A stretch of 64,000 nucleotides of DNA from Dehalococcoidia bacterium (GTDB lineage Bacteria > Chloroflexota > Dehalococcoidia > Lucifugimonadales > UBA3495), in assembly GCA_963665395.2 (NCBI GenBank), contig OY762251.1:432151-496150 (forward strand), in the 5' to 3' direction. Below the pieces are notes generated by a model, which saw only the letters and a list, made by a program, of their open reading frames with translations, had not been told where the DNA came from and did no database searches. Shown here one piece after another: positions 6,542-57,110 of this stretch. Within the stretch, counting starts at the first letter, position 1; each line of letters begins with the position of its first letter. Made by a program: the position numbers and the translations under genes.

Positions 6542-6585
6542 AACATCATCGTAATATCTGATACCATACGGTTCGCTGAATCTCC

Positions 6586-21910: not shown

Positions 21911-21935
21911 TAGGTTCGCCATCCCACTTTCTCTT

Positions 21936-23396: not shown

Positions 23397-23414
23397 CAGA
23401 CAAATGACGGGATT

Positions 23415-23564
23415 ATGACCAATCACAAACTTTCCCAAGACGCTCAAACTTACCTCGCCGAACTCCTTCAGGTCCGCGCCTCCGGCGGCGCAACCGGCGA
23501 GCATCCCAGCTATGGGCCGTTACTGACAGAGTTACCGTCAGGTTCCGGTCAACAACACCCCTGA
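23415..23564 (+). pseudogene. Possible N-terminal remnant (49 codons) of a restriction/modification-type methyltransferase
   Basis: MTNHKLSQDAQTYLAELLQVRASGGATGEHPSYGPLL resembles the N-terminus Y(L/I)..L..I...G.A.E.SYY..L..LL seen in some N6-methylase fusion enzymes. This is from memory only. The frame ends after 49 codons. Confidence 0.25.
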
Positions 23565-23672
23565 TTCGTCCTACTCGGGCAGGACGCCAGTGGGCCGTTG
23601 GTCCTGCTTGAGCAGGGGTTCACCAGCGAAATGGTCAACAAACAGCGGTCAATGCCAGAAAGCAAGGATTTT

Positions 23673-24062
23673 ATGCAGAACCAATCTCATGCAAGGCGAT
23701 TCTGGGGGAAGGCGGATCGCCAGGATCCGTACCGCGTCCACCTGCTGGAGCACCATCTGGCGGACGTGGGCGCGTGCTTCGAGGCGCTGTTGCGGCAGCC
23801 CACTATCCGGCGGCGGCTGGCGCGTACTGCCGGCCTGGATGAAATCGACGACGTAACGGCGGCGCGGCTGTGCGTGTTCGCCGCGCTGCACGACATCGGC
23901 AAGGCGAGCGTTGGGTTCCAGACTCGAATCTGGCGGCGAGAAGACATACCGGGCGGCCGGGTTCCGCCGGCTTTCCACGGTGTTGGGCACGTGCGGGATT
24001 TAGCACCAGTTCTAGACTGGCAACAGGATTGGGAGACGTCAGGATGGTTTTTGCCTAATTTA
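23673..24062 (+). pseudogene. cas3: cas3 5' remnant (HD-nuclease domain, type I-E-like), truncated by the next IS
   Basis: MQNQSHARRFWGKADRQDPYRVHLLEHHLADVGACFEALL ... FAALHDIGKASVGFQ, compared with E. coli Cas3 HYWGKS...LLIYHCLDVAAV and the HDxGK/FQ motif. AAGGA lies upstream of ATG 23673. The frame runs into the IS inverted repeat at 24063. Confidence 0.7.
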
Positions 24063-24065
24063 GGA

Positions 24066-25181
24066 TAGGACTTACGCAGTTGGGTTCAGCGAGTAGAGCG
24101 GTTGAGCGAGATACTGCTGGATAGCGTAGCGGACAATGTTCGTCACGGCCTCGTACCAACTGACGCCGGATTGCAGGCGGTGAACTTCCAGGCGCACGAA
24201 GGCGCGTATCGCCATCCCGATATGCCCCCGCTGGGCTTCCGCTTTCCGCGCCTGGCACCGCTCTACGCCGCAGCACTGCTTCAGTCCCCGGTGGTATTGT
24301 TCGATACCCCAGGCCTGGCCTTTCAGCGCTTCCTGCCGCTCCGGCGTCAGGTCCAAATCGTTGCTGGCCCAATGCTCCACGTCCCTGTTTGGTGAGACTG
24401 TCCGCAACACTTTGACCCAGCCGTAGCCCCGTCCGCCGGAGGCGGACACCGTCCGTCCCTCCGGCCCGATTTCCACCATGTCCACCCGCACGTTACCCGC
24501 CCCGTCCGGGTTCACCAGCCGATTACAGCGGAATTGGGTCAGCCACACCCAGCCGCATTCCCGCACCTTTTTCAGGTTCTCCAGGCTGCTGTACCAACTG
24601 TCGAAGAGGACGTAGCCGGGCTGAAAGCCTCTACTCTGGGCCGCATCCACCATCTCCCGGAAATAATCGTTCTTGTTCTTTCCGCTCCAGGGCTTGTCAT
24701 AGATGCGGAAATCGCAAGGTATCAAGGCTGAGCCGTCAGTCCACAACAACGTCAGCAGGTTGATGCCCTGGACCACCCGGCGGTGTTTGCCGCTCCAATG
24801 CCGGGTTACCAGTTCCATCTTCCGCGCGTAAGGCTTGTCCAAAGTGGTGTCGTCCAGCGCCAGCGCTCCCCCGTCCGGTTGCGCCAGCCTTCGGGTCTCC
24901 TGCCACAGCGCCTCCGTATCGGGAGGCTGTCTCCGCAGCAGGCGGGTAAAGGCGTCATGGGCCGGCCCGTCCGACGCCTCCGGCTGGCAACGGGCCGCTT
25001 CGGAGCAAGTAAAACTCCGCTGGGCCGCCACCAGAAAGTCAATGTAGTCTGACGACTCCCGCTTGGCTGGGTTCATTCCCCTTCACCCTCCCCTTGAGAC
25101 TTCGTCCCTCGGCAATCTTACCGGTATCATAGAATAGACAAGAGGATTTGCACCTTTCAACGCCCAACTGCGTAAGTCCTA
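24066..25181 (-). mobile_element. Second IS4/IS701-superfamily insertion sequence (about 1.1 kb) with 19-bp perfect terminal inverted repeats
   Basis: taggacttacgcagttggg at 24066..24084 and its reverse complement cccaactgcgtaagtccta at 25163..25181. The flanks are different gene remnants (cas3 on one side, a recombinase on the other). Confidence 0.75.
24072..25076 (-). CDS. DDE transposase (IS701/IS4-like)
   Basis: 334 aa. LALDDTTLDKPYA, VLFDSWYSS and IEQYHRGLKQ blocks supply the D, D and E-region signatures. Confidence 0.7.
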   Translation of the reverse strand: MNPAKRESSDYIDFLVAAQRSFTCSEAARCQPEASDGPAHDAFTRLLRRQPPDTEALWQETRRLAQPDGGALALDDTTLDKPYARKMELVTRHWSGKHRRVVQGINLLTLLWTDGSALIPCDFRIYDKPWSGKNKNDYFREMVDAAQSRGFQPGYVLFDSWYSSLENLKKVRECGWVWLTQFRCNRLVNPDGAGNVRVDMVEIGPEGRTVSASGGRGYGWVKVLRTVSPNRDVEHWASNDLDLTPERQEALKGQAWGIEQYHRGLKQCCGVERCQARKAEAQRGHIGMAIRAFVRLEVHRLQSGVSWYEAVTNIVRYAIQQYLAQPLYSLNPTA

Positions 25182-27081: not shown

Positions 27082-29757
27082 ATGGTGCAGGGCGGAGCGG
27101 AAACGCCAACTACACCGGGCGCTTTGTCAGGAATCCGAGTGTTGGACTTCACCTGGGTCCGGGCGGGTCCCTGGTGCACCCGATGGCTGGGGGCGCTGGG
27201 AGCCGAGGTAATCAAGGTTGAATGGCCCCAGAGACCCAACACCCGGGGCGACAACATTGTCACGGGAGCGGGCACCCCCGAGGGCTTCCCCGCCAATCTC
27301 AACACCAACGGCCATTTCAGCGACACCAACGCCAACAAGCTGAGCGTCACCCTGAACACTCGTACCGCCCGGGGCATTGACCTTACCCGGCGCCTGGTGG
27401 CCATGTCCGACATCGTCATCGAAAACTTCGCCTACGGCGTATTGGAGCGGTGGGGCCTGGGCTACGAGGAGATGAAGCAGCTCCGGCCCGACATCATTTA
27501 CCTTTCCATGTCCGGCTTCGGCCACACGGGTCGGGACCGAGACTATCAAACCATGGGAGCCATTGCTCAGGCACTGTCCGGTTTGACCTACACGTCGGGC
27601 CTGCCGGACCAGCCACCCGCCGGTTGGGGCTGGTCCTACCTGGACGACACCGGCGGCTTATACGGGGCCATGTATGCTCTGAGCGCGATTTACCATCGCA
27701 ACCTGACCGGCCAGGGACAGCATATCGACAGTTCCCAGTGGATCCTCGGCGTCCCCCTCAATGGTTCCGCTTTTCTGGACATCCAGGCCAACGGTCGTTC
27801 CACCATGCGAGAGGGTTACCCGCCGGGCAACCGCGCTCACTGGCCCGGCGCGCCCCTGGTTAACAACTACCGGGGGCGCACCGGGGCGCCGCACAACGCT
27901 TACCGGACCAGTCCGGCCGAGCACAACGACTGGTGCGCCATCGCCTGCTTCTCCGACGCTGAGTGGCGGAAATTGGTGGAGGTAATGGGCTCTCCCGGTT
28001 GGGCCGCCGGCGAGCAGTTTGCCACCCTTGACGGTCGCCTGGCGCATCAGGAAGAGCTGGATCAGGGAATAGAGGCGTGGACCAGGACGCTGGGCAAGTA
28101 CGAAATCATGGAGCGGTGCCAGGCGGCCGGAGTGCCCGCCATGCCCGTCCAAAGCAGCCAGGACCGGGTGGACAACGATCCCCAGCTCCGGCACCGAGAG
28201 CTGTACCGGGACGTGGAGCATCCCGCGCTGGGAACCTGGCCCCTTCAAAACGCTCCCTTCAAGATGTCGGAGACGCCGGCGACCAACAGCCGGTCAGGTC
28301 CCCTGATCGGCGGGCACAACAAAGAGGTGTTTCAGGGGTTGTTGGGCATCAGCCACGAGGAGCTGGTGAGCGGCTTTGCCGAAGGCGTCTTCTGGCCCAA
28401 AGACCTCAGCATGGAAGATTATCCCTACTTCAAGGAGATGATCGAGGACGCCTCGCCCGTACAGTGGTGCGGGAACGCGCCGATAGCGAATCCCGCGCCG
28501 GCGCCAGCGCGGACGCCGGACTCGAACTCTGCGGGGGCCTTTGCGAGGCTGCGGGTACTGGAGCTCGCCGATGAGATGGGGCAGTGGTGCGGCAAGCAGA
28601 TGGCCGACATGGGAGCCGACGTCATCAAGATAGAGCCGCCCGGCGGCGCGGCCGCCCGAACCGTGGGCCCCTTCTACCAGGACGTGCCGGATCGGGAGCG
28701 GAGCCTTTACTTCTGGCATTACAACACCTCCAAGCGGGGGATTACCTTGAACCTGGAGACGGAGGACGGGCGCCGGCTGTTCCGGCAAATGGCGGAGCAA
28801 TCGGACGTGATACTGGAGACCTGCCGGCCCGGTTATCTGGCCTCCCTGGGGCTCGGGTACGAAGACCTGGCAACCCGCAACCCTGGACTGATTATGTGCT
28901 CGCTGACCCCCTTCGGGCAGAACGGGCCGTGGCGCGACTTCCAGGCCGGCGACCTGCTGCATCTGGCAGCAGGCGGGCAGATGGCCCGGTGTGGCTATGA
29001 CGACGAAGTAGTCCCCGGCGCGCCCCCCATCGCTCCCGGAGGCGGGCAGGCCTGGCACATCGGAAGCCACTACGCCTACATCGCCATCGCCGCGGCGCTG
29101 GTCAGCCGGTCGGTGACGGCCCGGGGGCAGTACATAGACGCCTCGGTGCATGATGCCTGCGCGCTCACCACCGAGGGCCACGTGAACCAGTACATTTACA
29201 AAGGAAGCGTGGTTCCTCGCCGAACCGGAGGCGGCAACACCAACCTTGGGCCCAACGCCCAGGTCATCTGCAAGGATGGAAAATACGTGAATGTCGGCCA
29301 GGTTACCCCGGAGCGGATCCTGACGCTGGCGCCGTGGCTGGATGAGCGCGGCCTGGCGGGCGACCTGCTGGACGAAAAGTACCAGGATCCAACGGTCATC
29401 GCCGAGAGCCAGTCGCATATTCGCGCAATTTTCGAAAACTTCCTCGCCAACATCCCGCGAGACGAGGCCTACCACGGCTTGCAGCAGCGTAGCTCCAACA
29501 CGGGGGCGATCCGCTCTCCGGACGAGGTCATGCAGGACCCGCACCTGGAGGATCGAGGATTCTGGACGGATGTAGAATACCCGGAACTTGGCAAGACATA
29601 TCGACACCCCGGCCCCGGGGCCATCTTCAACGGCTCACCCTGGCGGATCTCTCGGCGCGCGCCTCTCCTCGGGGAGCACAACGAAGAGGTCCTGTGCGGG
29701 GAGTTGGGACTGTCCCAGGCGGAGTTGGCCGCCCTGGCTGAGGGAGGAGCGGTGTAA
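27082..29757 (+). CDS. Tandem fusion of two family-III CoA-transferase (CaiB/BaiF-type) domains in one 891-aa polypeptide
   Basis: There are two N-terminal signatures: LSGIRVLDFTWVRAGPWCTRWLGALGAEVIKVEWP and FARLRVLELADEMGQWCGKQMADMGADVIKIEPPGG. Each is followed by a full-length domain of about 400 aa. Confidence 0.85.
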   Translation: MVQGGAETPTTPGALSGIRVLDFTWVRAGPWCTRWLGALGAEVIKVEWPQRPNTRGDNIVTGAGTPEGFPANLNTNGHFSDTNANKLSVTLNTRTARGIDLTRRLVAMSDIVIENFAYGVLERWGLGYEEMKQLRPDIIYLSMSGFGHTGRDRDYQTMGAIAQALSGLTYTSGLPDQPPAGWGWSYLDDTGGLYGAMYALSAIYHRNLTGQGQHIDSSQWILGVPLNGSAFLDIQANGRSTMREGYPPGNRAHWPGAPLVNNYRGRTGAPHNAYRTSPAEHNDWCAIACFSDAEWRKLVEVMGSPGWAAGEQFATLDGRLAHQEELDQGIEAWTRTLGKYEIMERCQAAGVPAMPVQSSQDRVDNDPQLRHRELYRDVEHPALGTWPLQNAPFKMSETPATNSRSGPLIGGHNKEVFQGLLGISHEELVSGFAEGVFWPKDLSMEDYPYFKEMIEDASPVQWCGNAPIANPAPAPARTPDSNSAGAFARLRVLELADEMGQWCGKQMADMGADVIKIEPPGGAAARTVGPFYQDVPDRERSLYFWHYNTSKRGITLNLETEDGRRLFRQMAEQSDVILETCRPGYLASLGLGYEDLATRNPGLIMCSLTPFGQNGPWRDFQAGDLLHLAAGGQMARCGYDDEVVPGAPPIAPGGGQAWHIGSHYAYIAIAAALVSRSVTARGQYIDASVHDACALTTEGHVNQYIYKGSVVPRRTGGGNTNLGPNAQVICKDGKYVNVGQVTPERILTLAPWLDERGLAGDLLDEKYQDPTVIAESQSHIRAIFENFLANIPRDEAYHGLQQRSSNTGAIRSPDEVMQDPHLEDRGFWTDVEYPELGKTYRHPGPGAIFNGSPWRISRRAPLLGEHNEEVLCGELGLSQAELAALAEGGAV

Positions 29758-33237: not shown

Positions 33238-33663
33238 ATGGGAACACTGAACGCAGCAGAGGTGGATGAATTTCTGTCCCAGCCCCGGACGGCGCAGTTG
33301 GTCACCATGTATGCCTCCGGAACTCCCCACGTGGCGCCGGTTTGGTTCCTTTGGGATAACGGTCAGGCTTTGGTGATGGCAGACAGAGGGGCGGTGAAGG
33401 TGCGCAACATTCGCCGCAATCCCGCCGTGTCCCTGTGCGTCTGCACCCCGGATCACCCCTATTCTTTTGTGACCATCGAGGGCACGGCCAGCATCACCGA
33501 CCGCGGGCTGGACGACATGGTGCGCCGAACCTGCGTCCTCTACGAAGCAGAGGAGCGCGGCGCCGAGTTCGCCGCGGAACTTCTGGCCGACCAACGGTTG
33601 ACCCTGATCGTCATTTCCCCCGGTCGTTTCATCTCCTGGAAAGAGGACGACGAAGTTGATTAG
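33238..33663 (+). CDS. Pyridoxamine 5'-phosphate oxidase-family (PPOX / F420- or FMN-binding split-barrel) protein
   Basis: FLSQPRTAQLVTMYASGTPHVAPVWFLWD...VKVRNIRRNPAVSL pattern; 141 aa. Confidence 0.65.
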   Translation: MGTLNAAEVDEFLSQPRTAQLVTMYASGTPHVAPVWFLWDNGQALVMADRGAVKVRNIRRNPAVSLCVCTPDHPYSFVTIEGTASITDRGLDDMVRRTCVLYEAEERGAEFAAELLADQRLTLIVISPGRFISWKEDDEVD

Positions 33664-34868
33664 ATAACCCTGGCCGCCCGCAGCAGTCCCAGGTCCCGGA
33701 CTGTAAGTCCTAGCTCGCCACACAGAATTTCGACGTTGTGCTCGCCCAGCCGGGGCGCCGGTCGGGCCGCTGCCATGGCGTTTTCTCCGTCGATAAAGAA
33801 TCCCGAACCCGGGTATTGCAACGGGCCAGCCTCGGCATGGTCCAGCTCGACGAAGAACCCGCGCTCTTCCAGGTGCGGCGATTCCACCACCTGCTGCGGC
33901 GTCTGCACCAGCCCTACGACCAGGCCCCGGGCCATGGTCTCCCGCATCAAGTCCAGGTTGTTCCACTGGGCCAGCTTGGGGGCCACCAGTCCATGCAGCT
34001 CCTCCCAATGTTCCATCCGGCCGGCGCGGGAGGCGAACTTGGAATCCAGCAAGCCCGGTTCCTCCAGGAACTCCGCCCACACCTCCATGGGACGTCCGCC
34101 GGTGCCCGCCGTGGTGAGCGTTACTTCCCCGTCCCGGGTGGGCAGGTGCATCCCGTCCATTACGTTGCCGTCGCTGCCGCCCCGGTGGGGATTGCGTCCG
34201 GTGTAGGTGTAGGGGTGAATCAGCCCGGAGGGGGTACTGACGGCGGCCTCCATGGTCGAGACGTCGATGTGGGCGCCTTTTCCGGACTGCTCCCGGCGCA
34301 ACAGCGCGGCCATTGCCGCCACCGCGCCGTTGCGGGCGGCGGTAATCTCCATTTGCTGCAAGGCCGTGCCCATGGGCGGTTGGCTGGCCGAGCCGGTTAC
34401 CGCGTAAAGGTAGCCCCCCATGGCCTGCGCTACCAGGTCATCGCCCTGGTAGCCGGCGTATGGCCCGTCCTGGCCGAAATAGGTGATGGAAACCAGGATC
34501 AAGCCGGGGTTGGATTGGGACAGCCCTTCATAGCCCAATCCCAGTTCCGCCAGCCGCCCCGGTGGGTAGCTCTCAACGACAATATCCGCAGTGGCGGCCA
34601 ATCGCTCGAAAAGCTCCCGGCCTGCCGCCTGCTCCACGTCCAGCGTGATGCCCCGCTTGTTGGTATTGAAGGCAAGGAAGGCGGTGCCCCGGTCGGGATG
34701 GGGAACCTCGTCAATAAAGGGCGGTTCGTGGCGGGCTTGGTCGCCCCAGCCCGGCGGCTCAACCTTGATGGCGTCCGCGCCCTGGTCGGCCAGCAGCTTG
34801 GCGCAATAGGCGCCCGAGGGCCGGTGGGTCAGTTCCAGTACGCGCAATTCGGCAAGTATTCCGGGCAT
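33660..34868 (-). CDS. Family-III CoA-transferase (CaiB/BaiF-type)
   Basis: LAELRVLELTHRPSGAYCAKLLADQGADAIKVEPPGWGD; 402 aa. Confidence 0.85.
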   Translation of the reverse strand: MPGILAELRVLELTHRPSGAYCAKLLADQGADAIKVEPPGWGDQARHEPPFIDEVPHPDRGTAFLAFNTNKRGITLDVEQAAGRELFERLAATADIVVESYPPGRLAELGLGYEGLSQSNPGLILVSITYFGQDGPYAGYQGDDLVAQAMGGYLYAVTGSASQPPMGTALQQMEITAARNGAVAAMAALLRREQSGKGAHIDVSTMEAAVSTPSGLIHPYTYTGRNPHRGGSDGNVMDGMHLPTRDGEVTLTTAGTGGRPMEVWAEFLEEPGLLDSKFASRAGRMEHWEELHGLVAPKLAQWNNLDLMRETMARGLVVGLVQTPQQVVESPHLEERGFFVELDHAEAGPLQYPGSGFFIDGENAMAAARPAPRLGEHNVEILCGELGLTVRDLGLLRAARVI

Positions 34869-35088: not shown

Positions 35089-36348
35089 TTACGGCCTGGG
35101 TTCGTCGGGCCGGGGCGCGCCGAAAATCACGCCTTCGGATTCCAGTTCCCCGATTTCGGCCGGCGACAACCCGGCCAGCTCGGCCAATATGGCCGCGTTG
35201 TCCTGCCCCAATTGCGCAACCTTCGCAATTGACATGGGATTGCCGGGATCTCGGAAGGGGCGTCCGGCGAAAACACGGGATCCAACGGCGGGGGCCTGCG
35301 AGTTGGCGAACTCCCACAGATAGCCCCGTTCCCGCAGATGAGAGTCGTTCACCAGGTCCTGGGCGGTCATCGCCGAGCCGGCGGCGATGCCCACGCCTTG
35401 CAACTTCCGCGCCAATTCCAGGTCGTCGCGCTGGGAGGTCCAGTCGCCGATTAGCTCGTCCAGTTCATGGCGGTGGCGCCAGCGGGCTAAAGCCGTGCCG
35501 AATTTGGCATCCTCGGCCCACCGGGGCCGGCCCATTGCTCCCTTCAGCGCTTCCCATTCCGCGTCGGACGACACGACAATAACTATCCAACGGTCGTCGC
35601 CCCGGGCCGGATACACGTTGTGCGGCGCCTTCCACCAGTGGGCGCAGCCCAAGCGGTCGCGGGTTATGCCCCGCTGCGCCTCCAGGATGGCCGGCCCTAC
35701 CGCCGAAACCCCGGTTTCCAGCATGGTAAGGTCAACCCGCATACCCTGGCCCGTCTTGTTGCGCCGGTACAGGGCCAGCAGCAGAGCGTAGGCCACGTTG
35801 TTGCCCACGGAATGATCCATGTAGTTGGGGCTGGCCCGCTGGGAAGGGCCGCCCTCGTAGCCGGTCAGGTAGGACAAACCACAGGCGGCGTCAACGGTGC
35901 GGGCCCGGGAGCCGGCCCGCCGCCAGGGTCCGGTGTACCCGTAAGCGGTGCTGCTGAGGGTAATGATGCGGGGGTTGATTGCGGAGAGGCTGTCATGGTC
36001 GAACCCGAACCGCTGCATGGTGCCGGGACGGAAGTTGTCGGTCACGATGTCGGCCTGCTCCACCAGCTTGAGAAAGACTTCCTTGCCCCGGGGGTGGGTC
36101 ACGACCATGCACAGGCTGCGCTTGTTGCGGGCGCCGTAATAGACCATGTTGCCGGCTTCGTTCCACCACTCTTCACCCGGAGTTCCTTCGGGAAAGGGGC
36201 CGGCTTTGCGATCCTGCAGGTGGTCCGGGCTTTCGACGCGGATGACGTCGGCGCCCAAATCCGCAAGGAATCCCGTCCCCCACGGCAGCGCGTGCACCTG
36301 CTCCAGGCTAAGGACTCTAACCCCGTCGAGAATTCCCGGCTCCGCCAT
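35089..36348 (-). CDS. Family-III CoA-transferase (CaiB/BaiF-type)
   Basis: LDGVRVLSLEQVHALPWGTGFLADLGADVIRVESP; 419 aa. Confidence 0.85.
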   Translation of the reverse strand: MAEPGILDGVRVLSLEQVHALPWGTGFLADLGADVIRVESPDHLQDRKAGPFPEGTPGEEWWNEAGNMVYYGARNKRSLCMVVTHPRGKEVFLKLVEQADIVTDNFRPGTMQRFGFDHDSLSAINPRIITLSSTAYGYTGPWRRAGSRARTVDAACGLSYLTGYEGGPSQRASPNYMDHSVGNNVAYALLLALYRRNKTGQGMRVDLTMLETGVSAVGPAILEAQRGITRDRLGCAHWWKAPHNVYPARGDDRWIVIVVSSDAEWEALKGAMGRPRWAEDAKFGTALARWRHRHELDELIGDWTSQRDDLELARKLQGVGIAAGSAMTAQDLVNDSHLRERGYLWEFANSQAPAVGSRVFAGRPFRDPGNPMSIAKVAQLGQDNAAILAELAGLSPAEIGELESEGVIFGAPRPDEPRP

Positions 36349-41559: not shown

Positions 41560-42697
<1,138 letters not shown>

Positions 42698-42788
42698 GAT
42701 TTACCGGATTAATAGGATACCCAGGATTGGACGGATTCCGATGCCGAACAACGCCAATCTTGAAAATCCTTCAAATCCTGCTTCTGAC
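42698..42788. repeat. Right part of the family-A MITE split by the IS110 (the left 11 nt are at 41526..41536)
   Basis: gatttaccggattaatagg...aatccttcaaatcctgcttctgac aligns with copy 52284..52395. Confidence 0.75.
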
Positions 42789-42791
42789 GAT

Positions 42792-43358
42792 TTACGGAAC
42801 TGCCACCGGCTCCGGCATCAACAACCAATCCTGGGCTTGCTTGGCGGCGTCGGAAAGCCACCCGCTCATAATGGCCTCCCTGCCTTCCGGTATCTCCACG
42901 CCGAGGCCATCGGCCAGCCGATTCATAAAATTGAACACGCAGGTAATGGCGACGGTGGACAACACCTGCTCGTCGGTAAGTCCCACGGAGCGCAGATGCT
43001 CAACGTCCGATTCAGCCATCGCCGCCGGCGTCAGGGTCAGCTTGACGGCGTAGTCCAGGATGGCTCGCGTCTGCGGGTCCAGGTCGGCTTGTTTGTAGTC
43101 ATGGATGATGTGGCTGGCGTACTCGGGGTCGCCGGAATGTTGACGGAGGAACCCTCCGTGGGCGACGGCTCAATACCGGCAGCGGTTCACCAGCGACACC
43201 ACCGTGGCAATCGCCTCTTCCTGCGTCCGGGTCAGCGCCGACGAGCCGAAAGTGGCGTTGGCGTTCAGATTCTGCACCGCCGCCATCAACTCCGGGTTGA
43301 TGGACATACACTTGATGACCGCCGGCACGGCGGCGTCGGTTTCGAGTATCCACGACAT
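42792..43358 (-). CDS. AhpD/carboxymuconolactone-decarboxylase-like (peroxidase-related) selenoprotein, CxxU redox motif; in-frame UGA at 43170..43172
   Basis: ORFs 43170..43358 and 42792..43019 share a frame. I translated the 150 nt between them and found no other stop. The motif is ..VSLVNRCRY-U-AVAHGG.., where the family has CxxC. AAGGAG lies before ATG 43358. Total 188 aa. Confidence 0.75.
43143..43159 (-). other. SECIS-like hairpin for the AhpD-like gene
   Basis: RNA: UGA-GCCGUCGCCC-ACGGAGG-GUU-CCUCCGU. A 7-bp stem with a G/U triloop, starting 11 nt after the UGA. Confidence 0.55.
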
Positions 43359-43368
43359 AGGGACGCTC

Positions 43369-43396
43369 CTTGAATATGGTAGGGGCGAATGGTTAT
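43369..43396. repeat. Perfect 12-bp-stem hairpin between the two selenoprotein genes (REP-like or intercistronic stabiliser/attenuator)
   Basis: gtaggggcgaat-ggtt-attcgcccctac, immediately upstream (minus sense) of the AhpD-like RBS. Confidence 0.6.
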
Positions 43397-43448
43397 TCGC
43401 CCCTACGCGGTTGGTGGCGCTGTCGCGGGCGATGGCCCGTGTCCCTGC

Positions 43449-44009
43449 TTACGATGCGACAACCGGCTGCCCGGTCAGGATGGACTCAACCTCATCGGCC
43501 AACTCGGCGGCCCGCTGCTTCACCTCGTCGTCGGTGAGGCTGGACAGGGGATGCTGGGCGACGATGTAGCGGTAGTCGGGCACGCCCATCATGCGGGTCA
43601 TGGCCTGGGCTGTGTTGAGGAACACGTGGGTGATGATGGCTGCGGTGGGAACGCCGCGCTTTTCCATGTCGATTCCGTCGTGCACACTGCACGAGCTGCA
43701 GCTCCCTCAATCCCCAACCCCGGTGATGAGATAGTCAACCTCGCCCAGGATGGAGTCAATTACGTCCTGCTTGGCGGGCAGGCTGGCATGGTGCTTGCTG
43801 AAGTACTTGACTTCGGAGAAGCCGTGTCGCTCGTTGAGGATGTTTCCCAGCTCATGGAGCAGCTTGTCCGCGTTGGCCTTGGAGTTCTCCATAAGGCCCA
43901 GGCGCTTGCCGGCCAGCCCGGCGGAGCGGTCGTTCATGCGGAACGGGGTTTGAGGCAGCTCGGTGCCCTTGGGGTTCACGAGCCTTAGGCTCGATTCGGC
44001 GGTCGTCAT
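43449..44009 (-). CDS. UGSC-motif selenoprotein (UGSC family, function unknown); in-frame UGA at 43707..43709
   Basis: ORFs 43707..44069 and 43449..43685 are in frame. Read-through gives ..DYLITGVGD-U-GSCSSCSVHDGIDMEKRGVP... The start was moved to ATG 44009 (GGAGG 6 nt upstream). Total 186 aa. Confidence 0.75.
43678..43694 (-). other. SECIS-like hairpin for the UGSC gene
   Basis: RNA: UGA-GGGAGCUGCAGC-UCGUGCA-GUG-UGCACGA. A 7-bp stem with a G/U triloop, starting 13 nt after the UGA. Confidence 0.5.
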
Positions 44010-44065
44010 ATCTAACCTCCGTTGGCGTTTCGGTGGGAACTCTACCAGATAGCGTGATTGTACCG

Positions 44066-44881
44066 TCAAACGGCGGTGTCGCGTAACCCCTTTTCGCGGA
44101 GCAGTTGGTCCAGCCAGGCGCGGTCGTGGTCGGACAAGGGTGGCTCCGGGTCGGTTTGGTAGTCTATATCCAGGTCAAATCCGCCATCGGCATAGACGAT
44201 GTTGACGACCTCGTTCAGGTTGACGGCAATGCCTTCGTCGCCTTTAGCCAGCGGCATTATGAAGTTGGGTATGGATTGGCGTATGCCGAAGGGGTATAAG
44301 TTGGCAACGCGCTCGGTCCGTTGGGCATCGGCAACCAGTATCCGGTAGTGGCTGGGCGGCATTGGAGTAAGCACAGGCATCGGCTGACCAGCGCGCAAGA
44401 GGTCGATTTCGACCAGATGGGTCATGCTGTACAGTACCTGGGCGCGTTTGGCCTGATAAACGCGCCGGCCGGAACCGGACTTGTTGGTCGGCGACAGCAT
44501 TTCTATGGCGGTTATGACCTCACGATTGCTCACACGAACTATTTCCAGATAGATCTGCTTTTCCAGTTCCACTTCCGGCAGTTGAACGACTACCGGGTCG
44601 GCGAGGGCCAGCCCTTCGGCCGTCCTCTCCCGTCTTGGCGTCGCGGCGGTGGACAGAACCGCAACATCAGGCATCCGAAGGTCGCTGCTGTCCCTGGAGT
44701 TGGGATCGGAGATAACGTACACACGCTCCTGTATCGTGACCCTGTAATCGGGCCTCAAGCGCGGGGAAAGATAGCTGCGCAACCCGACCATAACGCTGTG
44801 ATGGACGTCGGGCCACAAGCCGGGGTCTTCCAGGTACGGGTTCATCCCCGGAAAGGGGTTTTGCGGCAACGGTGTCGTCAT
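44066..44881 (-). CDS. DUF4058-family protein (Uma2-like PD-(D/E)XK fold), paralogue 1
   Basis: MTTPLPQNPFPGMNPYLE..WPDVHH..; PDVAV ... EMLSPTNK ... EIDLLR. Its ATG overlaps the stop of paralogue 2 (ATGA at 44878..44881). Confidence 0.75.
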   Translation of the reverse strand: MTTPLPQNPFPGMNPYLEDPGLWPDVHHSVMVGLRSYLSPRLRPDYRVTIQERVYVISDPNSRDSSDLRMPDVAVLSTAATPRRERTAEGLALADPVVVQLPEVELEKQIYLEIVRVSNREVITAIEMLSPTNKSGSGRRVYQAKRAQVLYSMTHLVEIDLLRAGQPMPVLTPMPPSHYRILVADAQRTERVANLYPFGIRQSIPNFIMPLAKGDEGIAVNLNEVVNIVYADGGFDLDIDYQTDPEPPLSDHDRAWLDQLLREKGLRDTAV

Positions 44882-45726
44882 CCCGCACCTCCATCGTTGC
44901 GTAGCCCCTTTTCGCGCAGCAGTTGGTCCAGCCAAACGCGGTCGGCGTCGGACAGAGGCGGCTTCGGGTCTTGCCGGTAGTCAACGAGCAGATTGTAGTA
45001 CCGGGCAGAATAAACGCTGTCAATAATTACGCCGACGTTAACGGCTATGCTTTCCGTCCCTTTGGCCAGGGGCATCACGAAATCGGGTATGGGCTGGCGT
45101 AGGTTGAAGGGATACAAATCGGCGACGGGTTCGGTGCGTCGGGCGTTTGCGACCAGGATACGGTAGTGGCTGGCCGGCGCGTTGCCGGCGAGAGGCATGG
45201 GACGCCCGGCGCGCAAGAGGTCAATCTCCACCAGGTGGGTTGAGCTGTATAGCGTTTCCGCGCGCTTGGACAGATATTCCTTGCGGCCATCGCCCGATTT
45301 ATTGGAAGGCGACAGCACTTCAATTATGGCGACGACCTGCTGCCGGCCATCAACCCGACGCACTTCCAAATAGCGCTCTCTTACTAACTCAGTAGCCGGC
45401 AACTGTACGGCAACTGCGGCGGAACTACGCTCTGGATATGGGTCAATGTTCTCCGCGCCTGACGTTGCCTCGCCGGCTACCACCGCAACATCCGGGATGC
45501 GAGTTTGCTCACTGCCGGCGCCGTTGCCGCGGTCGTTCCGGCCCGGTTCCGCAACCACGTAAATCCGTTCCCCAACGGTCACCACGTAGTCGGGTTGCAG
45601 GCGTGGGGCCAGAAAACCCTGCAACTCCGCGATGACGAGCAGATGAACACCCGGCCAGACGCTGCCACGTTCCAGGTACGGATTCATCCCCGGAAAAGGG
45701 TTTTGCGGCAGCGCGGCGGTCATCAT
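44878..45726 (-). CDS. DUF4058-family protein, paralogue 2
   Basis: MMTAALPQNPFPGMNPYLE; PDVAV ... EVLSPSNK ... EIDLLR. The ATGA overlap with the stop of paralogue 3 is at 45723..45726. Confidence 0.75.
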   Translation of the reverse strand: MMTAALPQNPFPGMNPYLERGSVWPGVHLLVIAELQGFLAPRLQPDYVVTVGERIYVVAEPGRNDRGNGAGSEQTRIPDVAVVAGEATSGAENIDPYPERSSAAVAVQLPATELVRERYLEVRRVDGRQQVVAIIEVLSPSNKSGDGRKEYLSKRAETLYSSTHLVEIDLLRAGRPMPLAGNAPASHYRILVANARRTEPVADLYPFNLRQPIPDFVMPLAKGTESIAVNVGVIIDSVYSARYYNLLVDYRQDPKPPLSDADRVWLDQLLREKGLRNDGGAG

Positions 45727-46544
45727 GCGCCCCCGCCGTCGCGCAGGCCCTGTTGACGCAGCAGTTGGTCAAGCCAGACGCGGTCGTCGTCGGAAAGTGG
45801 CGGTTCGGGGTCCTGCCTGTAGTCAATGTCCCGGTCATAGGAGCCGAGGATGTACACCTCATCGATGATCGGTTTCAGGTCTATGGCGATACCCCCGGAG
45901 CCTTGAGCCAACGGCATTACGAAGTTGGGTATCGGTTGGCGTATGCTGAAGATGTACAGAGACGCATTCGGCGCCAGCCGCGCGTTACTGACCAGAATCC
46001 GATAGTCACCACCGGGCACGTCCCCGACGACCGGCATCGGCGGGCCAGACCGCAGCAGATCAATTTCCACCAAATGGGCGAGGCTGTACTGCACTTCGGC
46101 GCGTTTGGACAGATATTCCTGTCGCCCCTTGTTGGATTTATTGGCAGGCGACAACAGTTCAAGTACCGCCACTACCTCGCGGTTGCTGACCCTGATAATT
46201 TCCAGGTAACTCTCTCTTTCTAACTCCAGCGCCGGCAGTTCCACCGTAATCGCATCCTCGGTTTGGCGGGGTTCCGTTTCCAACGCGACAACTCGCTCGG
46301 CGGCCCAGCCGGGATCCAAAACCGTGATGTCCGGTATGCGGGAAGGACGTTGACCGCTTGTATCCGGCTCCTCAGATACAGACACCCGTTGTTCGATACG
46401 CACCAAGTAGTCAGGCCGTAGTTGCGAACCCAAAGTACGGGCTAACTCGGCAATCACCCATTGATGTATGCCGTGCCAAAGCTCGGCGCGTTCCAGGTAC
46501 GGGTTCATCCCCGGAAACGGGTTTTCCGGCAGTCGCGTCGTCAT
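45723..46544 (-). CDS. DUF4058-family protein, paralogue 3
   Basis: The start was moved to ATG 46544 (MTTRLPENPFPGMNPYLE). PDITV ... ELLSPANK ... EIDLLR. It lies 5 nt after the stop of the upstream gene. Confidence 0.75.
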   Translation of the reverse strand: MTTRLPENPFPGMNPYLERAELWHGIHQWVIAELARTLGSQLRPDYLVRIEQRVSVSEEPDTSGQRPSRIPDITVLDPGWAAERVVALETEPRQTEDAITVELPALELERESYLEIIRVSNREVVAVLELLSPANKSNKGRQEYLSKRAEVQYSLAHLVEIDLLRSGPPMPVVGDVPGGDYRILVSNARLAPNASLYIFSIRQPIPNFVMPLAQGSGGIAIDLKPIIDEVYILGSYDRDIDYRQDPEPPLSDDDRVWLDQLLRQQGLRDGGGA

Positions 46545-46549
46545 GCTGA

Positions 46550-47578
46550 TCACTCGCCGCCGATTTTGCGGGTGCGGATGCGGTAGCCGGTGGTGTCGAT
46601 GATGGCGCTGTAGCGTCCTCCGGTGCCGCCGCCGTGCATGATGAGGATGTCGTCGGGGTCGTTGGCGCAGCGCATGATGAGCTCCTCGTCGCCGGGCCGC
46701 TCCGGGCCCTGCTTGGAGCCCAGCCGCACCAGCTCGGCGCGGGAGCGTCCGCTGTTTTCAATCAGGAACTCCTGGATGTCCCGCCGGCTCCAGCCGTCGC
46801 CTTGCAGCGTGAGGGCGTGTTCGGGACCGATGACGATGACCCACTGGGCCGGATAGCGGTGGGCCAGGGCCGTCGAACGCAGCGCGTCGCAGATGGAGTA
46901 CAGGATCTGACGACCCGTGTGGCCGTAGCTATTGGGCACGCTGACCGGGTTGTAGGCCACGGCCACGGTGACCACGCTGTCGGAGGCGTCGAAGCCCCGG
47001 CTCACGTGCAGCGGCTCCCAGGGTGAGGTTTCCTCGTTCTCCGCGACGCAGAAGGTGTACTTGGCCGGCGTGCCCAGGGTGCCCCGGTCCAGCTGCCCGG
47101 GCCAGGCGTCAAAGCCGTTCATAAAGCAGAGGCGCACGGCCCGCCCGATGCTGGCGTTGGCGCGAAAGCCGGGGCCGAACAGCCCGTCCCGGCTGTTGAT
47201 GCCCAAAGCCTCCCGGATGGGGCCGTTGAGCACCATCAGGATGCTGGGCGAACTGGTGGACGAGGCCGCCATGTTGACGAAGTTGCGCTCTTCTTCCAGC
47301 GTCCGCAGGGCGGTTACCAGCACGGGGAAGTATTCCGCCTGACAGCCGGCCATCACGGCGTTGGCGGCAGCGTTCTCCGACGTGATAACCCGGCTGCGCA
47401 TATCCAGGTTGAGCAGCTCCTCCTCGCCGGTAAGGCCGGCGAAGGACAGCATCTCACGGACTTTGTAATCAGCCGGCGGCACCACCGGCAGGCCGTCGGT
47501 CCAGCCGAGGCGGAAACATTCCTCAATGGCCTCAATGGTGTCGGCGGTTTCAACATGGCGTTCGGCGCTGGTGGTCAT
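46550..47578 (-). CDS. Conserved hypothetical protein (342 aa) with a GWTDGLPVVPP motif
   Basis: The start was moved to ATG 47578 (AAGGAG 6 nt upstream). The nominal ATG 47608 lies inside a REP element. The composition looks like a soluble enzyme. I cannot name the family. Confidence 0.6.
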   Translation of the reverse strand: MTTSAERHVETADTIEAIEECFRLGWTDGLPVVPPADYKVREMLSFAGLTGEEELLNLDMRSRVITSENAAANAVMAGCQAEYFPVLVTALRTLEEERNFVNMAASSTSSPSILMVLNGPIREALGINSRDGLFGPGFRANASIGRAVRLCFMNGFDAWPGQLDRGTLGTPAKYTFCVAENEETSPWEPLHVSRGFDASDSVVTVAVAYNPVSVPNSYGHTGRQILYSICDALRSTALAHRYPAQWVIVIGPEHALTLQGDGWSRRDIQEFLIENSGRSRAELVRLGSKQGPERPGDEELIMRCANDPDDILIMHGGGTGGRYSAIIDTTGYRIRTRKIGGE

Positions 47579-47603
47579 CGTAAGCTCCTTGTCTGCATCT
47601 AAT

Positions 47604-47658
47604 GTCATTCCCGCGAAAGAACGTCACCCCGTACATGATACGGGGCGGGAATCCAGAG
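47604..47658. repeat. Nested REP hairpins: a family-C palindrome inserted in the loop of a gtcattcccgc....gcgggaatccagag hairpin
   Basis: gtcattcccgcgaaagaacgtca[ccccgtacatgatacgggg]cgggaatccagag. The simple form of the outer hairpin is at 52436..52464, and a relative is at 13521..13547. Confidence 0.7.
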
Positions 47659-52478: not shown

Positions 52479-55400
52479 ATGCCTGCCCGCCGCCGCGTCA
52501 CGTCCCGCCGTCCCCTTGTCTTCGTCGTCCTCCTGGCCTTGGCCGCCCTGGGCGCGGCGGCCGCCTTGGCCCTTTTACCCGCCGCCGGCCAAACCGCCTC
52601 CGCTCAAGGTTCCGCCTCCCTGGAAGAATGTCACAACTTGTATCTGGATATGTATGTAGATAACAACGATATGCATTTCACAGTAGCCAATCGCAACGAC
52701 GAAGAAACCATTGCCAACGTGATGGTTAAATTCAAGAGAGATGCTGCAGCTGACGACGACCAGACTTCCCAGTGGACACGCGCTGCTGCTACTCAATTCA
52801 TTGCCGGTTATGGTACTGCATGGGTTAGCGACGCTCCCGACTACATAGTCCACTGGCTGCTGCCCGCCGTGCCGCCGGGCACGTCGTATCGAGCCCGCAT
52901 CGGGCCCGGCAGCTCTCTCGCCCCAGTACGTCAGAGTATTTCGAGGAACACTGTCACCATGGAGCAGCGCGTTCCCGGCGCTGACACCGCGCTCTGTAGA
53001 ACTACGCGAGAGTTCTGGTCTCGCAAGGGTGGCACTTATGTAAGAGCGTTTGCTGGTGTCTATAAAATTGGCGAATTGTCCGTAGATAACCGATACCCGG
53101 CGCCGGGCGGCAACGTGAACTTCAAGGTGGTGGGGGATAGCCAGGATAGCGTCTCTGCATCCGTGAAAGTACAGCACACGTCGGGGCTGGAGTTCCAAAC
53201 CGAAGGAACACCACCGAGCAATAAGGCGCCCGTCATCAAGCCGACCCCGCAATCCCCGCGCACTTTACCGCTGGCGGTGTGGCAACACTACAACGCGACG
53301 ACGGGCGTTGGCGAATTCTACATCGGCAACGAAGGCGTAACGTCAATTGCAGCGAGGCCTGAAATCAGCCTCACGCTGCCGCTGAAGTTGAAGTCGGGGG
53401 TATCGGCGGACGGGCAGTGCCTGACGGCGACGATAACGGCCACGCCCAAGTACGCCAACCCCAACACTCCCGGTGAGAACTACGACGACCCGGCGGACAA
53501 CACCAAGACGGTGTGCCTGGGCAAGCCGCCAACGGATGAGTTGCCGGTTTTGCTCACCGACGGGCCGGCCGACCTGCTCAATCTAGTAGGTTGCGCCAGC
53601 AGGACCGACTATCCCTGCGAGGCTACTGACCCAGCTACCCCCAATCGAGTGGAGCTGGTGGTTGCGGGCAACGACGCAGCCGTCAACGCGGGGATGCCTT
53701 ACCAGTATTTCCAACCCGAAGACGTGGTGGTGCAGATCCCTGACCCGGCCGGCCGGAACACGGTCACCGGCGAGAGCGGCATATTCTGGTGGAGCGGCAG
53801 CGATCAGGCATCTACCGGCGCAAACCACCCCGGCATCGAACCCGGCGTGGCCGGCTATAATACTTCTGAATGTCTCGCGGATAAGGACCCCAACAATTCG
53901 CCCGATGACGACCCTGAATACAAGGGATGGAAACTTGCCATCGCTAACATAACCGACGGCCAGGGCAATACCATCGACCATACTCCGGGGTCGATGACAC
54001 TCTGGGATATATCCTCCGTCGAAAACCATAGCTTCGGTTACGTGGACGTGGACGGCGGCAATAATCTCGGAAGAGAGTTGGAATATCCAGATGACAAATT
54101 GTGTGGAACATCATTTCTATACACGTATGAGTTCGGCAAGTTAGGGACCTATAAAGTGGATTTTACGAACGAGACCAAATACCAGGACGCCAATGCAACC
54201 GCGTACAGCGACACAGCCCGCTACACCTTCCACGTCGGCCCGGCGGCGGAGCTGTCGGTGGCGGACGGCGACGACGTCCCGGCCCTGGCGTCGGGCCAAA
54301 CCGCCTACACGCTGGACTTGTCCAACCACGGCCCCGACCCGTCAGTGGCGGCCAAAGTGGCGGTGCAGCTGCCGGCCGACGCCACCGGCGTCGCCACCGT
54401 GCCCGCCAACCTGGGAACCTTTCACGCCGCCGGAACCACCGCCGGCGTGGCCCACGGCCCTTACTGGATTTGGGACGCCGGCGAGTTGCTCCAGTCCGAC
54501 TTTTCACGGGTGGCGGGCCGGCCCCAGGGCGGGGTAGTGTCCCTCATCGTCACCGGCGTGTCGTCCGGCGCCACCGCCACGGCCACCGTCAGCAACGGCA
54601 ACGGCTCTTGCAGCGTGTCCTCCACCACCTTGACCCACGTCATCCGGGAAGCGGACTGCAAGGCGGTCACCGGCGCCACGTGGACGGCGGCCAATCCCTA
54701 CACGGTCTGCATCGACACCGACCACCTTCGCCTCCTTGACGTAACCCCCAAGCCGGCCAATCAAACGGCCTGCGAAGCCACCACCGGCAACAAGTGGTAC
54801 GCCGGCACGGTGCTGGACCACCGGCCGGGCAACAACACGGCCACGCTGACGGCGCGGGGCGGCGGGGCCGGCCTGTCCGGGTGGTCGGCCGCCCCGGGCG
54901 TCGGCCGTCCCACCGTGATGCTGAACTGGCCGGCGGCAACCGCCGCGGTGGAGTACCGCATCTTCCGCTCCGCCGACGGCAAATTGGGCAGCTACCGGCA
55001 GATCAAGCGGGTTGACCAAGACACCCTCACCTACACCGACGCCGCCGACGTTCTGAAGGAGAACGAAACCTACTACTACCAGGTGGAGGCGCTGTACCCC
55101 AACAAGCGGCTGGCCGACATCTACGCCACCTCCATAACGGCGACGCTGAAGGCCCGGTCGCCCCACGCGCCCTACTCGGTGAGCGGCCTGAAGGCGGCCC
55201 GCACTGCCGACAACGAAAACATCATCGCCGTCACCTGGACGGCGCCGAGCAACGCCACCGCCGCCACCCGCTACGACGTACAGTATCAGACCCGCCTCGG
55301 CAACACCGGCAACTACGGCGACTGGACCGCCGCGGCCACCAAGCAGGCGGGGTTGGCCTACACCATCACCGGGGCCGGCGGCGGCACCAGCTACCGCATC

Positions 55401-57110
55401 CAGGTGCGCGCCGTCAACGTGGTGGGCGACGACAGCTACGAAAGCGGCTGGAGCACCGCCACCGTAGGCACGGTAGCCGCCCCCGACCAGGTGGGCAACC
55501 TACAGGCCCGCCGCACCCCCAACAACCTGACCAACATCATCGTCAGCTGGGATGCCCCCAGCGTCGGCGCCACGCCCGACGGCTACGACGTGCAGTACCG
55601 GGAAAACAACGGCGACTGGCAAACCGCGGCAACCAAGCAGGCCGGACTGACGTACACGCATGGCAACGCCAAAGGCGCCAGCAGCTACCAGTTCCGCGTG
55701 CGCACGGTCATTGAATCCGGCAGCGACGACGTACCCGGCAGCTGGCGCACCACCGGCACGGTGTCGAAGGTTCCGAATCCCGGCGCAGTGTCCGGCCTGA
55801 CCGCGGCCCGCACCGCCACCGACGAAACCAAGATCGACGTCACCTGGACGGCGCCCAGCGGAGGCACCACTCCCTCCGGCTACGATGTGGCGTACCGGGT
55901 CAACGGTAGCGGCGACTGGCAGACCACCGACTTGACGGTCACCGGAACCACTGCCGAGTTGACCGGCGCATCCGGCAACAGCACTTACCAGTTCCGTGTC
56001 CGCGGGGTCAAGACGCTCACCCACACCAACAACACGGTCGAAAATCTCGCGGGCAGTTGGAGAACGTCCAGCACGGTGCCGAAGGTGTCCGCGCCCAACC
56101 GGGTCACCGGCCTGACGGCGACGCGCAGCGACACCGACGAAACCAAGATTACCGTCACCTGGACGGCGCCCAGCAGCGGCGACACGCCTACCGGGTACGA
56201 CGTGGAGTACAAGCAGGACGGCGGCAACACCTGGAATACCGGGACGACCGTGACCCATCCGACCGTGACGCACACGTTCACCGTGGCCGGCGGCAGCAGC
56301 TACCAGTACCGGGTGCGGGCGTTCCGGACACTCACCAGCACCAACGAAAAGCTGGAGGGCAGCTGGACGACCTCCGGCACGGTGCGCGGCCTGCCGGCCG
56401 GCCCGGTAACCAACCTCACGGCGACGCGCAACACGGCGGACAAAACCACCATCGACGTGAGTTGGTCGGCGTCGAACCGGGCCACCGGGTACGACGTGCA
56501 GTACCGCAAGAACAGCGGCAGTTGGAGCACGGGGGCGAGCAAGCAGACCGGGCTGACGTACACGCAGACCGACGCCGGCGGGGTGGAGACTTACCAGTTC
56601 CGCGTGCGCGGCGTGTCCGGCGCCGGCAACGGCGACTGGACGGAATCGGCCCAGGTGGGGCCGCCGCCGCTGGAGTGGCAGGGCTACGAAGTCGGGCCGA
56701 CGGTGGCCGACGGCAAGATGGCGTGGATCACGCTGAAGATGGCCAGCGGCCCCTGGTGGTACGAGTACCGCAACCACGTGGGCGACTGGTCCAGCTGCAA
56801 GCGGGTGGCCGCCGGCAGCCACACCATCACCAACCTGCGCGCGCCGATTACGTATATCGTCGAGATCTTCGACGCTGCCGGCTGCGACAACGGCGACCGC
56901 ATCCGGCGGGAAAACATCACCACCGTGGACGTGCAAGACACGATCCTGGACGGCAAGGACCCCAACAACCACACCCACAAGCGGCAGTATCCGCGCCTGG
57001 GCGTCCTGGGCGAAGGAGATTGCGCGTCCGACCGGATGTGGCACAGCCACGGCTGGCCCAATAGCGGCAACTGGTACGGCCAGCACTGGCACTGCCAGAT
57101 TTACCAATAG
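52479..57110 (+). CDS. Large secreted protein (1543 aa): signal peptide, lower-GC N-terminal region, DUF11-like domain, six FN3 domains, C-terminal Cys-FN3-like domain and a His/Trp/Cys-rich tail
   Basis: Signal LVFVVLLALAALGAAAALALLPAAGQTASAQ. YTFHVGPAAELSVADG...LDLSNHGPDPSVAAKVAVQLP. FN3 repeats (V(T/S)WTAPS...GYDV.Y....G.W......YQFRVR) at about 54880-56680. MAWITLKMASGPWWYEYRNHVGDWSSCKRV..ITYIVEIFDAAGC. Confidence 0.85.
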   Translation: MPARRRVTSRRPLVFVVLLALAALGAAAALALLPAAGQTASAQGSASLEECHNLYLDMYVDNNDMHFTVANRNDEETIANVMVKFKRDAAADDDQTSQWTRAAATQFIAGYGTAWVSDAPDYIVHWLLPAVPPGTSYRARIGPGSSLAPVRQSISRNTVTMEQRVPGADTALCRTTREFWSRKGGTYVRAFAGVYKIGELSVDNRYPAPGGNVNFKVVGDSQDSVSASVKVQHTSGLEFQTEGTPPSNKAPVIKPTPQSPRTLPLAVWQHYNATTGVGEFYIGNEGVTSIAARPEISLTLPLKLKSGVSADGQCLTATITATPKYANPNTPGENYDDPADNTKTVCLGKPPTDELPVLLTDGPADLLNLVGCASRTDYPCEATDPATPNRVELVVAGNDAAVNAGMPYQYFQPEDVVVQIPDPAGRNTVTGESGIFWWSGSDQASTGANHPGIEPGVAGYNTSECLADKDPNNSPDDDPEYKGWKLAIANITDGQGNTIDHTPGSMTLWDISSVENHSFGYVDVDGGNNLGRELEYPDDKLCGTSFLYTYEFGKLGTYKVDFTNETKYQDANATAYSDTARYTFHVGPAAELSVADGDDVPALASGQTAYTLDLSNHGPDPSVAAKVAVQLPADATGVATVPANLGTFHAAGTTAGVAHGPYWIWDAGELLQSDFSRVAGRPQGGVVSLIVTGVSSGATATATVSNGNGSCSVSSTTLTHVIREADCKAVTGATWTAANPYTVCIDTDHLRLLDVTPKPANQTACEATTGNKWYAGTVLDHRPGNNTATLTARGGGAGLSGWSAAPGVGRPTVMLNWPAATAAVEYRIFRSADGKLGSYRQIKRVDQDTLTYTDAADVLKENETYYYQVEALYPNKRLADIYATSITATLKARSPHAPYSVSGLKAARTADNENIIAVTWTAPSNATAATRYDVQYQTRLGNTGNYGDWTAAATKQAGLAYTITGAGGGTSYRIQVRAVNVVGDDSYESGWSTATVGTVAAPDQVGNLQARRTPNNLTNIIVSWDAPSVGATPDGYDVQYRENNGDWQTAATKQAGLTYTHGNAKGASSYQFRVRTVIESGSDDVPGSWRTTGTVSKVPNPGAVSGLTAARTATDETKIDVTWTAPSGGTTPSGYDVAYRVNGSGDWQTTDLTVTGTTAELTGASGNSTYQFRVRGVKTLTHTNNTVENLAGSWRTSSTVPKVSAPNRVTGLTATRSDTDETKITVTWTAPSSGDTPTGYDVEYKQDGGNTWNTGTTVTHPTVTHTFTVAGGSSYQYRVRAFRTLTSTNEKLEGSWTTSGTVRGLPAGPVTNLTATRNTADKTTIDVSWSASNRATGYDVQYRKNSGSWSTGASKQTGLTYTQTDAGGVETYQFRVRGVSGAGNGDWTESAQVGPPPLEWQGYEVGPTVADGKMAWITLKMASGPWWYEYRNHVGDWSSCKRVAAGSHTITNLRAPITYIVEIFDAAGCDNGDRIRRENITTVDVQDTILDGKDPNNHTHKRQYPRLGVLGEGDCASDRMWHSHGWPNSGNWYGQHWHCQIYQ

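Follow-up and report, generated by a model that had tools for sequence, protein, structure and literature searches.

The 64-kb stretch of Dehalococcoidia bacterium contig OY762251.1 analysed here (hereafter the window) carries two adjacent candidate selenoprotein genes on the minus strand, each interrupted by a single in-frame TGA. The upstream gene (gene A) belongs to the UGSC family and the downstream gene (gene B) is related to AhpD. In the original prediction, four open reading frames (ORFs) were read as these two genes, each split by one TGA, and on translation all of the coordinates hold (Table 1). The host is probably a sponge-associated, SAR202-related Dehalococcoidia bacterium. Here we describe the two genes, the conservation of their UGA codons and of the RNA hairpins that follow them, and the neighbouring gene family to which the UGSC protein appears to be linked. 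Loci and proteins used for comparison are given as L and P numbers.

Table 1. Positions of the two candidate selenoprotein genes, their putative recoding elements and the neighbouring genes in the window (Sec, selenocysteine; SECIS, selenocysteine insertion sequence; HMM, hidden Markov model)
Feature	Coordinates	Strand	Remarks
Gene A, UGSC-family candidate selenoprotein gene	44009..43449	minus	186 aa including predicted Sec at residue 101; translation and HMM
Gene A in-frame UGA (predicted Sec codon) in GVGD-U-GSC	43709..43707	minus	TGA in 88/88 related loci
Gene A SECIS-like hairpin, UCGUGCA-GUG-UGCACGA	43694..43678	minus	7 bp, GUG triloop, 12 nt past UGA
Gene B, AhpD-like (TIGR01926, COG2128-type) candidate selenoprotein gene	43358..42792	minus	188 aa including predicted Sec at residue 63
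Gene B in-frame UGA (predicted Sec codon) in C-R-Y-U-A-V-A-H	43172..43170	minus	TGA in 42/42 + 75/75 loci
Gene B SECIS-like hairpin, ACGGAGG-GUU-CCUCCGU	43159..43143	minus	7 bp, GUU triloop, 10 nt past UGA
Partner gene of UGSC, uncharacterised ~346-aa protein with GWTDGLPVVPP	46550..47608	minus	upstream of UGSC in 76/88 loci
Three tandem DUF4058 genes between partner gene and UGSC	44066..46553	minus	PF13267 (first copy); outside redox module
IS110-family transposase gene, just downstream of gene B	41560..42507	minus	PF01548, PF02371; ends conserved block

Gene A is preceded by a ribosome-binding site (GGAGG at 44020..44016, 6 nt upstream of the ATG) and encodes MTTAES...LITGVGD (100 aa), followed by the TGA, GSCSSCSVHDG...VVAS (85 aa) and a TAA stop codon. 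Read through, it contains the proposed motif LITGVGD-U-GSCSSC, with ITGVGD-U-GSCSSCSVHDGIDMEK as the stretch spanning the predicted Sec. For HMM scoring of both read-through proteins, U was swapped for C. Gene A scores 156.7 bits against NCBIfam NF041046 ("UGSC family (seleno)protein", curated cut-off 125) and 193.7 bits against Pfam PF24696 (cut-off 25), the latter match covering profile positions 2-171 of 172, in agreement with its predicted assignment to the UGSC family. The U residue aligns with the invariant Cys of GVGD-C-GSC in 36 Cys-form UGSC homologues. When 5.8 billion proteins were searched, gene A proved closest to dozens of 102-aa proteins, all ending in ...ITGVGD, and full-length Cys forms are found at 36-47% identity only. 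From the U-G-S-C (UxxC) motif of this UGSC-family protein we infer redox chemistry.

The fold of the UGSC family was examined on an AlphaFold model of the Cys-form relative P0019, not of the window protein itself (predicted local distance difference test score, pLDDT, 91.5). This model contains a parallel β-sheet in an α/β/α arrangement, and the UGSC family is predicted with high confidence to be a flavodoxin/Rossmann-like domain of this type. The C/U-G-S-C motif begins the helix following strand 3, lying at the helix N-terminus in the model. Searching the PDB with the UGSC sequence gave no real match, and a Foldseek search with the P0019 model returned only generic flavodoxin-like, G-domain and lumazine-synthase-like PDB matches (best template-modelling score ~0.5), with no thioredoxins among the matches and no close structural relative in the PDB. 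The thioredoxin-like fold guessed for UGSC in 2008 receives no support from the model or from Foldseek.

Gene B also has a ribosome-binding site (AGGAG at 43370..43366), and its two fragments lie in one frame, as anticipated: MSWILE...VNRCRY (62 aa) is followed by the TGA, AVAHGGFLRQ...VAVP (125 aa) and TAA, with no other stop. It scores 138.8 bits against TIGR01926 ("peroxidase-related enzyme", cut-off 81.8), 36.8 bits against TIGR00778 (AhpD core domain, cut-off 27.8) and 43.3 bits against PF02627 (CMD, cut-off 23). A phmmer search matches gene B to PDB entries 6k40, 2oyo and 2pfx (E ~1e-27 to 1e-28), and in the alignments C60-R-Y-U63-A-V-A-H67 corresponds column for column to the NRC-x-Y-C-AV-x-H of all three. 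U63 falls where these solved AhpD-like structures have the second Cys of their CxxC, and the original prediction of an AhpD/CMD-like protein had put it there too. At the level of sequence comparison, both the family of each gene and the position of U within it are established. Gene B would carry a CxxU motif, with Sec in place of the reactive second Cys of CxxCxxxH, and most likely encodes a hydroperoxide or disulfide reductase.

Public gene calls cut both genes in two, giving pieces of 102 aa and 72-85 aa for gene A and of 62 aa and 92-124 aa for gene B, and the close relatives of gene B recovered in the protein search are 119-124-aa C-terminal pieces. The expectation that standard gene callers would report fragments is borne out, and for annotation the locus appears to be a clean case of gene callers splitting selenoprotein genes; public protein collections contain dozens of the 102-aa and 119-124-aa fragments of genes A and B.

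The set of UGSC loci used to assess conservation of the UGA (n = 88) comprises the window, seven metagenome loci and 80 loci from a species-level genome collection. All of these 80 are from Dehalococcoidia, SAR202 or Chloroflexota metagenome-assembled genomes, some named as sponge-derived. The U codon of UGSC is TGA in 88/88 loci, the window included, and is followed by 84-92 open codons. In 42 loci (40 of the 80 genome loci, L004 and the window) the gene immediately following UGSC is AhpD-like, and its corresponding codon is TGA in every case. TGA is likewise present in 75/75 further AhpD-like genes from marine metagenomes (55-89% identity), bringing the total to 117/117. Downstream of the UGA in both genes, the frame is open in every locus, amino acids are conserved and synonymous sites vary freely.

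These data bear on two alternatives in which Sec plays no part. Since TGC or TGT becomes TGA by a single-base change, and since insertion sequences abound in the window, which also has other truncated genes, the in-frame stops might mark two ordinary Cys genes that have decayed to pseudogenes or that contain sequencing or assembly errors. However, the same TGA occurs in 88/88 and 117/117 independent assemblies, long-read chromosomes included, and is accompanied by purifying selection downstream and by a conserved RNA hairpin. This explanation, which the original prediction had already considered implausible for two neighbouring genes, is effectively refuted and highly improbable. UGA is a sense codon in some uncultured bacteria, and the second alternative is that it is read as Trp or Gly throughout this organism. 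TGA is nevertheless the ordinary stop in 10 of the 25 Pfam-supported genes of the window, therefore indicating no reassignment of the genetic code, and a scan for other coding-like in-frame TGAs returned genes A and B alone; this alternative is likewise refuted, and its probability is negligible. Errors, pseudogenes and a reassigned code are thus excluded by the conservation of TGA in all loci together with the use of TGA as a stop in the window. The other frames returned by the scan do not look coding; among them, a candidate in-frame TGA at 18486 lies in an Arg/Ala/Ser/Pro-rich antisense frame and was rejected.

The codon preceding the UGA (43710-43712 and 43173-43175 in the window, minus strand) ends in T throughout the close clade (GAT in 79/79 and TAT in 42/42 sequences), although C-ending codons are preferred elsewhere. 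The more distant AhpD-like genes have TAT or TTT at this codon in 67/75 cases and TAC in eight. The T-ending codon ahead of the UGA may reflect a context effect on UGA recoding.

Each UGA is followed by a 7-bp stem capped by a GUG (gene A) or GUU (gene B) triloop, as had been predicted, whereas the predicted spacing of 11-13 nt is off by one nucleotide, the measured values being 10 nt for gene B and 12 nt for gene A. Codons +5 to +10 of gene A, which form the hairpin (TCG TGC AGT GTG CAC GAC) and include one six-fold degenerate Ser codon, are essentially invariant in 79 distinct sequences. The Ser at +2, on the other hand, is encoded by any of its six codons, and the adjacent Gly and Val codons vary freely. 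Codons +4 to +9 of gene B (CAC GGA GGG TTC CTC CGT) are likewise near-invariant (42 sequences). The summed synonymous entropy of the hairpin is 0.09 bits in gene A (median 5.53) and 0.60 bits in gene B (median 6.17), the lowest of 117 and 121 six-codon windows, respectively.

Pairing within the stems is also maintained. In gene A, 75/75 distinct sequences keep 7/7 pairs, and a single change, from G-C to G-U, is seen. In gene B, the inner six pairs are kept in 100/100 distinct sequences and the basal A-U pair is lost in 12/100. Changes in the gene B stem comprise seven that preserve pairing through wobble and one double change from G-C to A-U (L122), which is repeated in L010; in both of these loci a Gly-to-Glu replacement is combined with a synonymous TTC-to-TTT change, restoring the pair. 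As controls, three Cys-form UGSC genes are without the hairpin, and the Gly-form AhpD-like gene in L008 has lost it. Both hairpins are judged to be real because of this comparative evidence, namely synonymous constraint and kept pairing, and both are under constraint at the RNA level.

Taken with the conserved UGA codons, the hairpins point to a familiar mechanism of recoding. The stem-loop just downstream of one specific UGA in each mRNA would be a bacterial SECIS element, to which SelB carrying GTP and Sec-tRNA(Sec) would bind as the ribosome arrives at the UGA, so that the codon would be decoded as Sec instead of stop. In the bSECISearch consensus, the apical loop contains a G and is situated some 16-37 nt from the UGA. 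The apical loops here start 19 nt (gene A, GUG) and 17 nt (gene B, GUU) past the UGA and contain G, in line with the consensus, and binding of SelB is predicted. As in bacterial SECIS elements of the E. coli fdhF type and in the bSECISearch consensus, the stem-loops lie within the coding sequence right after the UGA and their loops start with G-U. They differ from such elements in being very small (7 bp with a triloop), in having no obvious bulged U and in having no Rfam model, and their recognition by SelB is putative. We consider it very probable that gene A and its neighbour gene B are both intact and that the single in-frame UGA of each encodes Sec, making both selenoprotein genes.

Several results weigh against this interpretation. 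The folding energies of 60-nt segments containing the hairpins are no better than chance when compared with shuffled sequences (z +0.25 and -0.81, at 64% G+C), and for this reason synonymous-site conservation was used. Rfam gives no match in the whole window at gathering thresholds, and a permissive Rfam scan of 42600-44200 gives no SECIS match. The stems are almost invariant, so that true covariation amounts to one or two events. In addition, the nearest full-length relatives of gene B (proteins P0118, P0124 and P0131-P0149) have Gly, Trp, Arg, Leu or Glu at the U position, Cys forms of the family being more distant members only. For three of these variants the DNA was read, and the codon at the U position is GGA (L008/L009, 6196), TGG (L010, 767) or CGA (L011, 359), each one base from TGA. 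As for the Sec machinery, which was sought in the window and in the related loci that had been fetched, ARAGORN detects no tRNA at all, hence no tRNA-Sec, in the 64 kb of the window, and Pfam annotation of its approximately 40 ORFs reveals no selA, selB or selD; 859 kb of related loci likewise contain no tRNA-Sec (ARAGORN) and no sel genes. Support for the machinery comes only from published data on related genomes.

Among the relatives of gene B, the Gly form (CRYGA[LM]THGG, 187 aa) constitutes a large and diverse clade in which the hairpin is lost, and the Trp and Arg variants retain the hairpin.

The lack of Sec machinery in the window, and the TGG, CGA and GGA codons in close relatives of gene B, which indicate that the U position can mutate away from Sec, would both suit a further alternative, in which the UGAs are real but do not specify Sec here. 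They would then yield truncated N-terminal fragments, the Sec trait having been lost, or a standard residue (Cys or Trp). Against this, the locus retains the TGA, the frame after it and the hairpin, all three intact and identical to those of dozens of relatives, and truncated fragments would not be expected to fold, because the predicted structure is a single domain with U in its middle. Related genomes, moreover, have SelA, SelB and large selenoproteomes. Locus L053 (contig MPNC01000001), which carries both UGA genes, belongs to SAR202 bin87, a genome obtained from the sponge Aplysina aerophoba. For bin87, Table S4 of the published study gives, by column count, three COG1921 (SelA) and one COG3276 (SelB) (PMC5649159). 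The study also notes an enrichment of SelA and SelB in sponge symbionts (PMC5649159). Locus L067, which carries the UGSC UGA gene, is from isolate 10f4566d..., and BSepDB places isolate 10f4566d among the bacteria richest in selenoprotein genes, with 46 (PMC13326102). We therefore regard the loss of Sec decoding as unlikely and retain the interpretation of genes A and B as selenoprotein genes; a small residual uncertainty concerns whether working Sec machinery is still in this genome or not.

Selenoprotein catalogues have included both families since 2005-2008. In the Global Ocean Sampling (GOS) metagenomes, "AhpD-like 1" (COG2128, CxxU) is represented by 299 Sec and 902 Cys sequences and "UGSC-containing" (UxxC) by 255 Sec and 21 Cys sequences (PMC2398784), and both belong to the selenoprotein families that are most abundant in the sea (PMC2398784). 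A figure in that paper depicts a UGSC/Unknown_1 fusion. A 2026 review ties them to TIGR01926 and NF041046 and describes their functions as uncharacterised (PMC13188914); a 2022 review also lists both as functionally uncharacterised. The present bacterial lineage has itself been listed among the most selenoprotein-rich (PMC13326102).

Gene A resembles the previously described UGSC family (NF041046, PF24696; Zhang & Gladyshev, Olavius symbiont 2007, GOS 2008) over its full length, with the motif at the conserved position, a stem-loop after the UGA and Sec forms far outnumbering Cys forms. Nothing essential differs, apart from the thioredoxin-like fold guess of the 2008 paper, which contrasts with the α/β/α model. 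Gene B shares with AhpD-like 1 (TIGR01926, COG2128; CxxU) the C-x-x-U-x-x-x-H arrangement with U at the second Cys, and its subfamily differs in that the nearest non-Sec members have Gly, Trp, Arg, Leu or Glu, not Cys. The original prediction correctly recognised two selenoprotein families that were already known, in a lineage likewise known to be rich in selenoproteins. The finding is an ordinary one because both families are long known and curated and the trait is known in the lineage, and it adds little biologically, as published work already covers the families and their Sec motifs and has shown marine and sponge Dehalococcoidia to be rich in selenoproteins.

No mention of the adjacency of UGSC and AhpD-like genes was found in the selenoprotein literature examined. 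Among the more distant marine metagenome loci with 1.5 kb of flanking sequence, the two genes are adjacent in 1/80. Their adjacency is a feature of one Dehalococcoidia clade, not of the more distant marine relatives.

The part of the locus most worth following up is the partner gene encoding the GWTDGLPVVPP protein, since adjacent genes and fused domains tie UGSC to a large uncharacterised enzyme family. The suggestion that this protein co-occurs with UGSC is supported by the related loci (76/88), by other lineages and by fusions, the two genes adjoining one another across phyla. In other lineages, homologues with 34-40% identity (E about 1e-65) adjoin Cys-form UGSC genes. They lie immediately after the Cys-form UGSC gene and overlap it in L092 (the actinobacterium Thermocatellispora, 5537-6616) and L094 (5555-6673), and upstream of UGSC in L093 (1304-2359). 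An exhaustive search places the GWTDGLPVVPP family at 4375 clusters at 50% identity. Twelve longer members were examined for domain fusions: 6/12 have an N-terminal UGSC domain with a CGSC, CGNC or degenerate motif, and 3/12 have an N-terminal AhpC/TSA redoxin domain instead. Partner-family proteins noted in the course of this analysis are P0397, P0421, P0427, P0404, P0415 and P0468.

The partner protein has no Pfam or NCBIfam match, and contains a conserved Cys in the motif NAVMAGC. Its AlphaFold model is too poor for use (pLDDT 56), and a match to HisF in a profile search of PDB sequences (E 0.004) is marginal and was not trusted. Because of the fusion and neighbourhood pattern, the sequence data argue that UGSC may act as a redox partner of the uncharacterised GWTDGLPVVPP enzyme. 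A more specific proposal is that UGSC, rather than being a free-standing protein, would be a dedicated selenol/thiol redox subunit of this widespread enzyme, and that in this sponge-associated clade the module would have gained the neighbouring AhpD-like selenoprotein to form a two-selenoprotein redox system; we put it forward tentatively, leaning slightly towards doubt. The link to the partner protein offers a concrete handle on the role of UGSC, an abundant marine selenoprotein family without an assigned function.

The DUF4058 genes between the partner gene and gene A form arrays that vary in number, with three copies in the window and zero to six in related loci. None is called in L001, the array occupies about 4955-9900 in L004-L007, and copy number differs between closely related genomes.

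Positions 43379-43406 of the window, between genes A and B, form a perfect inverted repeat of 12 bp (GTAGGGGCGAAT-4 nt-ATTCGCCCCTAC) with no T-run after it. The same repeat is present downstream of the AhpD-like gene in three related genomes; its positions in relatives are 5609-5634 in L012, 5612-5637 in L019, 5616-5641 in L061 and 757-782 in L096.

Elsewhere, the window is rich in insertion sequences, with two DDE_5 transposases in addition to the IS110 element, and contains apparently truncated genes (a 588-aa DnaE fragment and a 156-aa Cas3 HD fragment) and two giant fibronectin-III repeat proteins (2263 aa and 1543 aa). The regions concerned are 20144-25076, 41560-42507, 6586-13377 and 52479-57110. 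Three CoA-transferase family III genes, one encoding an 891-aa double-domain protein, are present together with amidase, short-chain dehydrogenase/reductase and aldo-keto reductase genes (27082-29757, 33660-34868 and 35089-36348).

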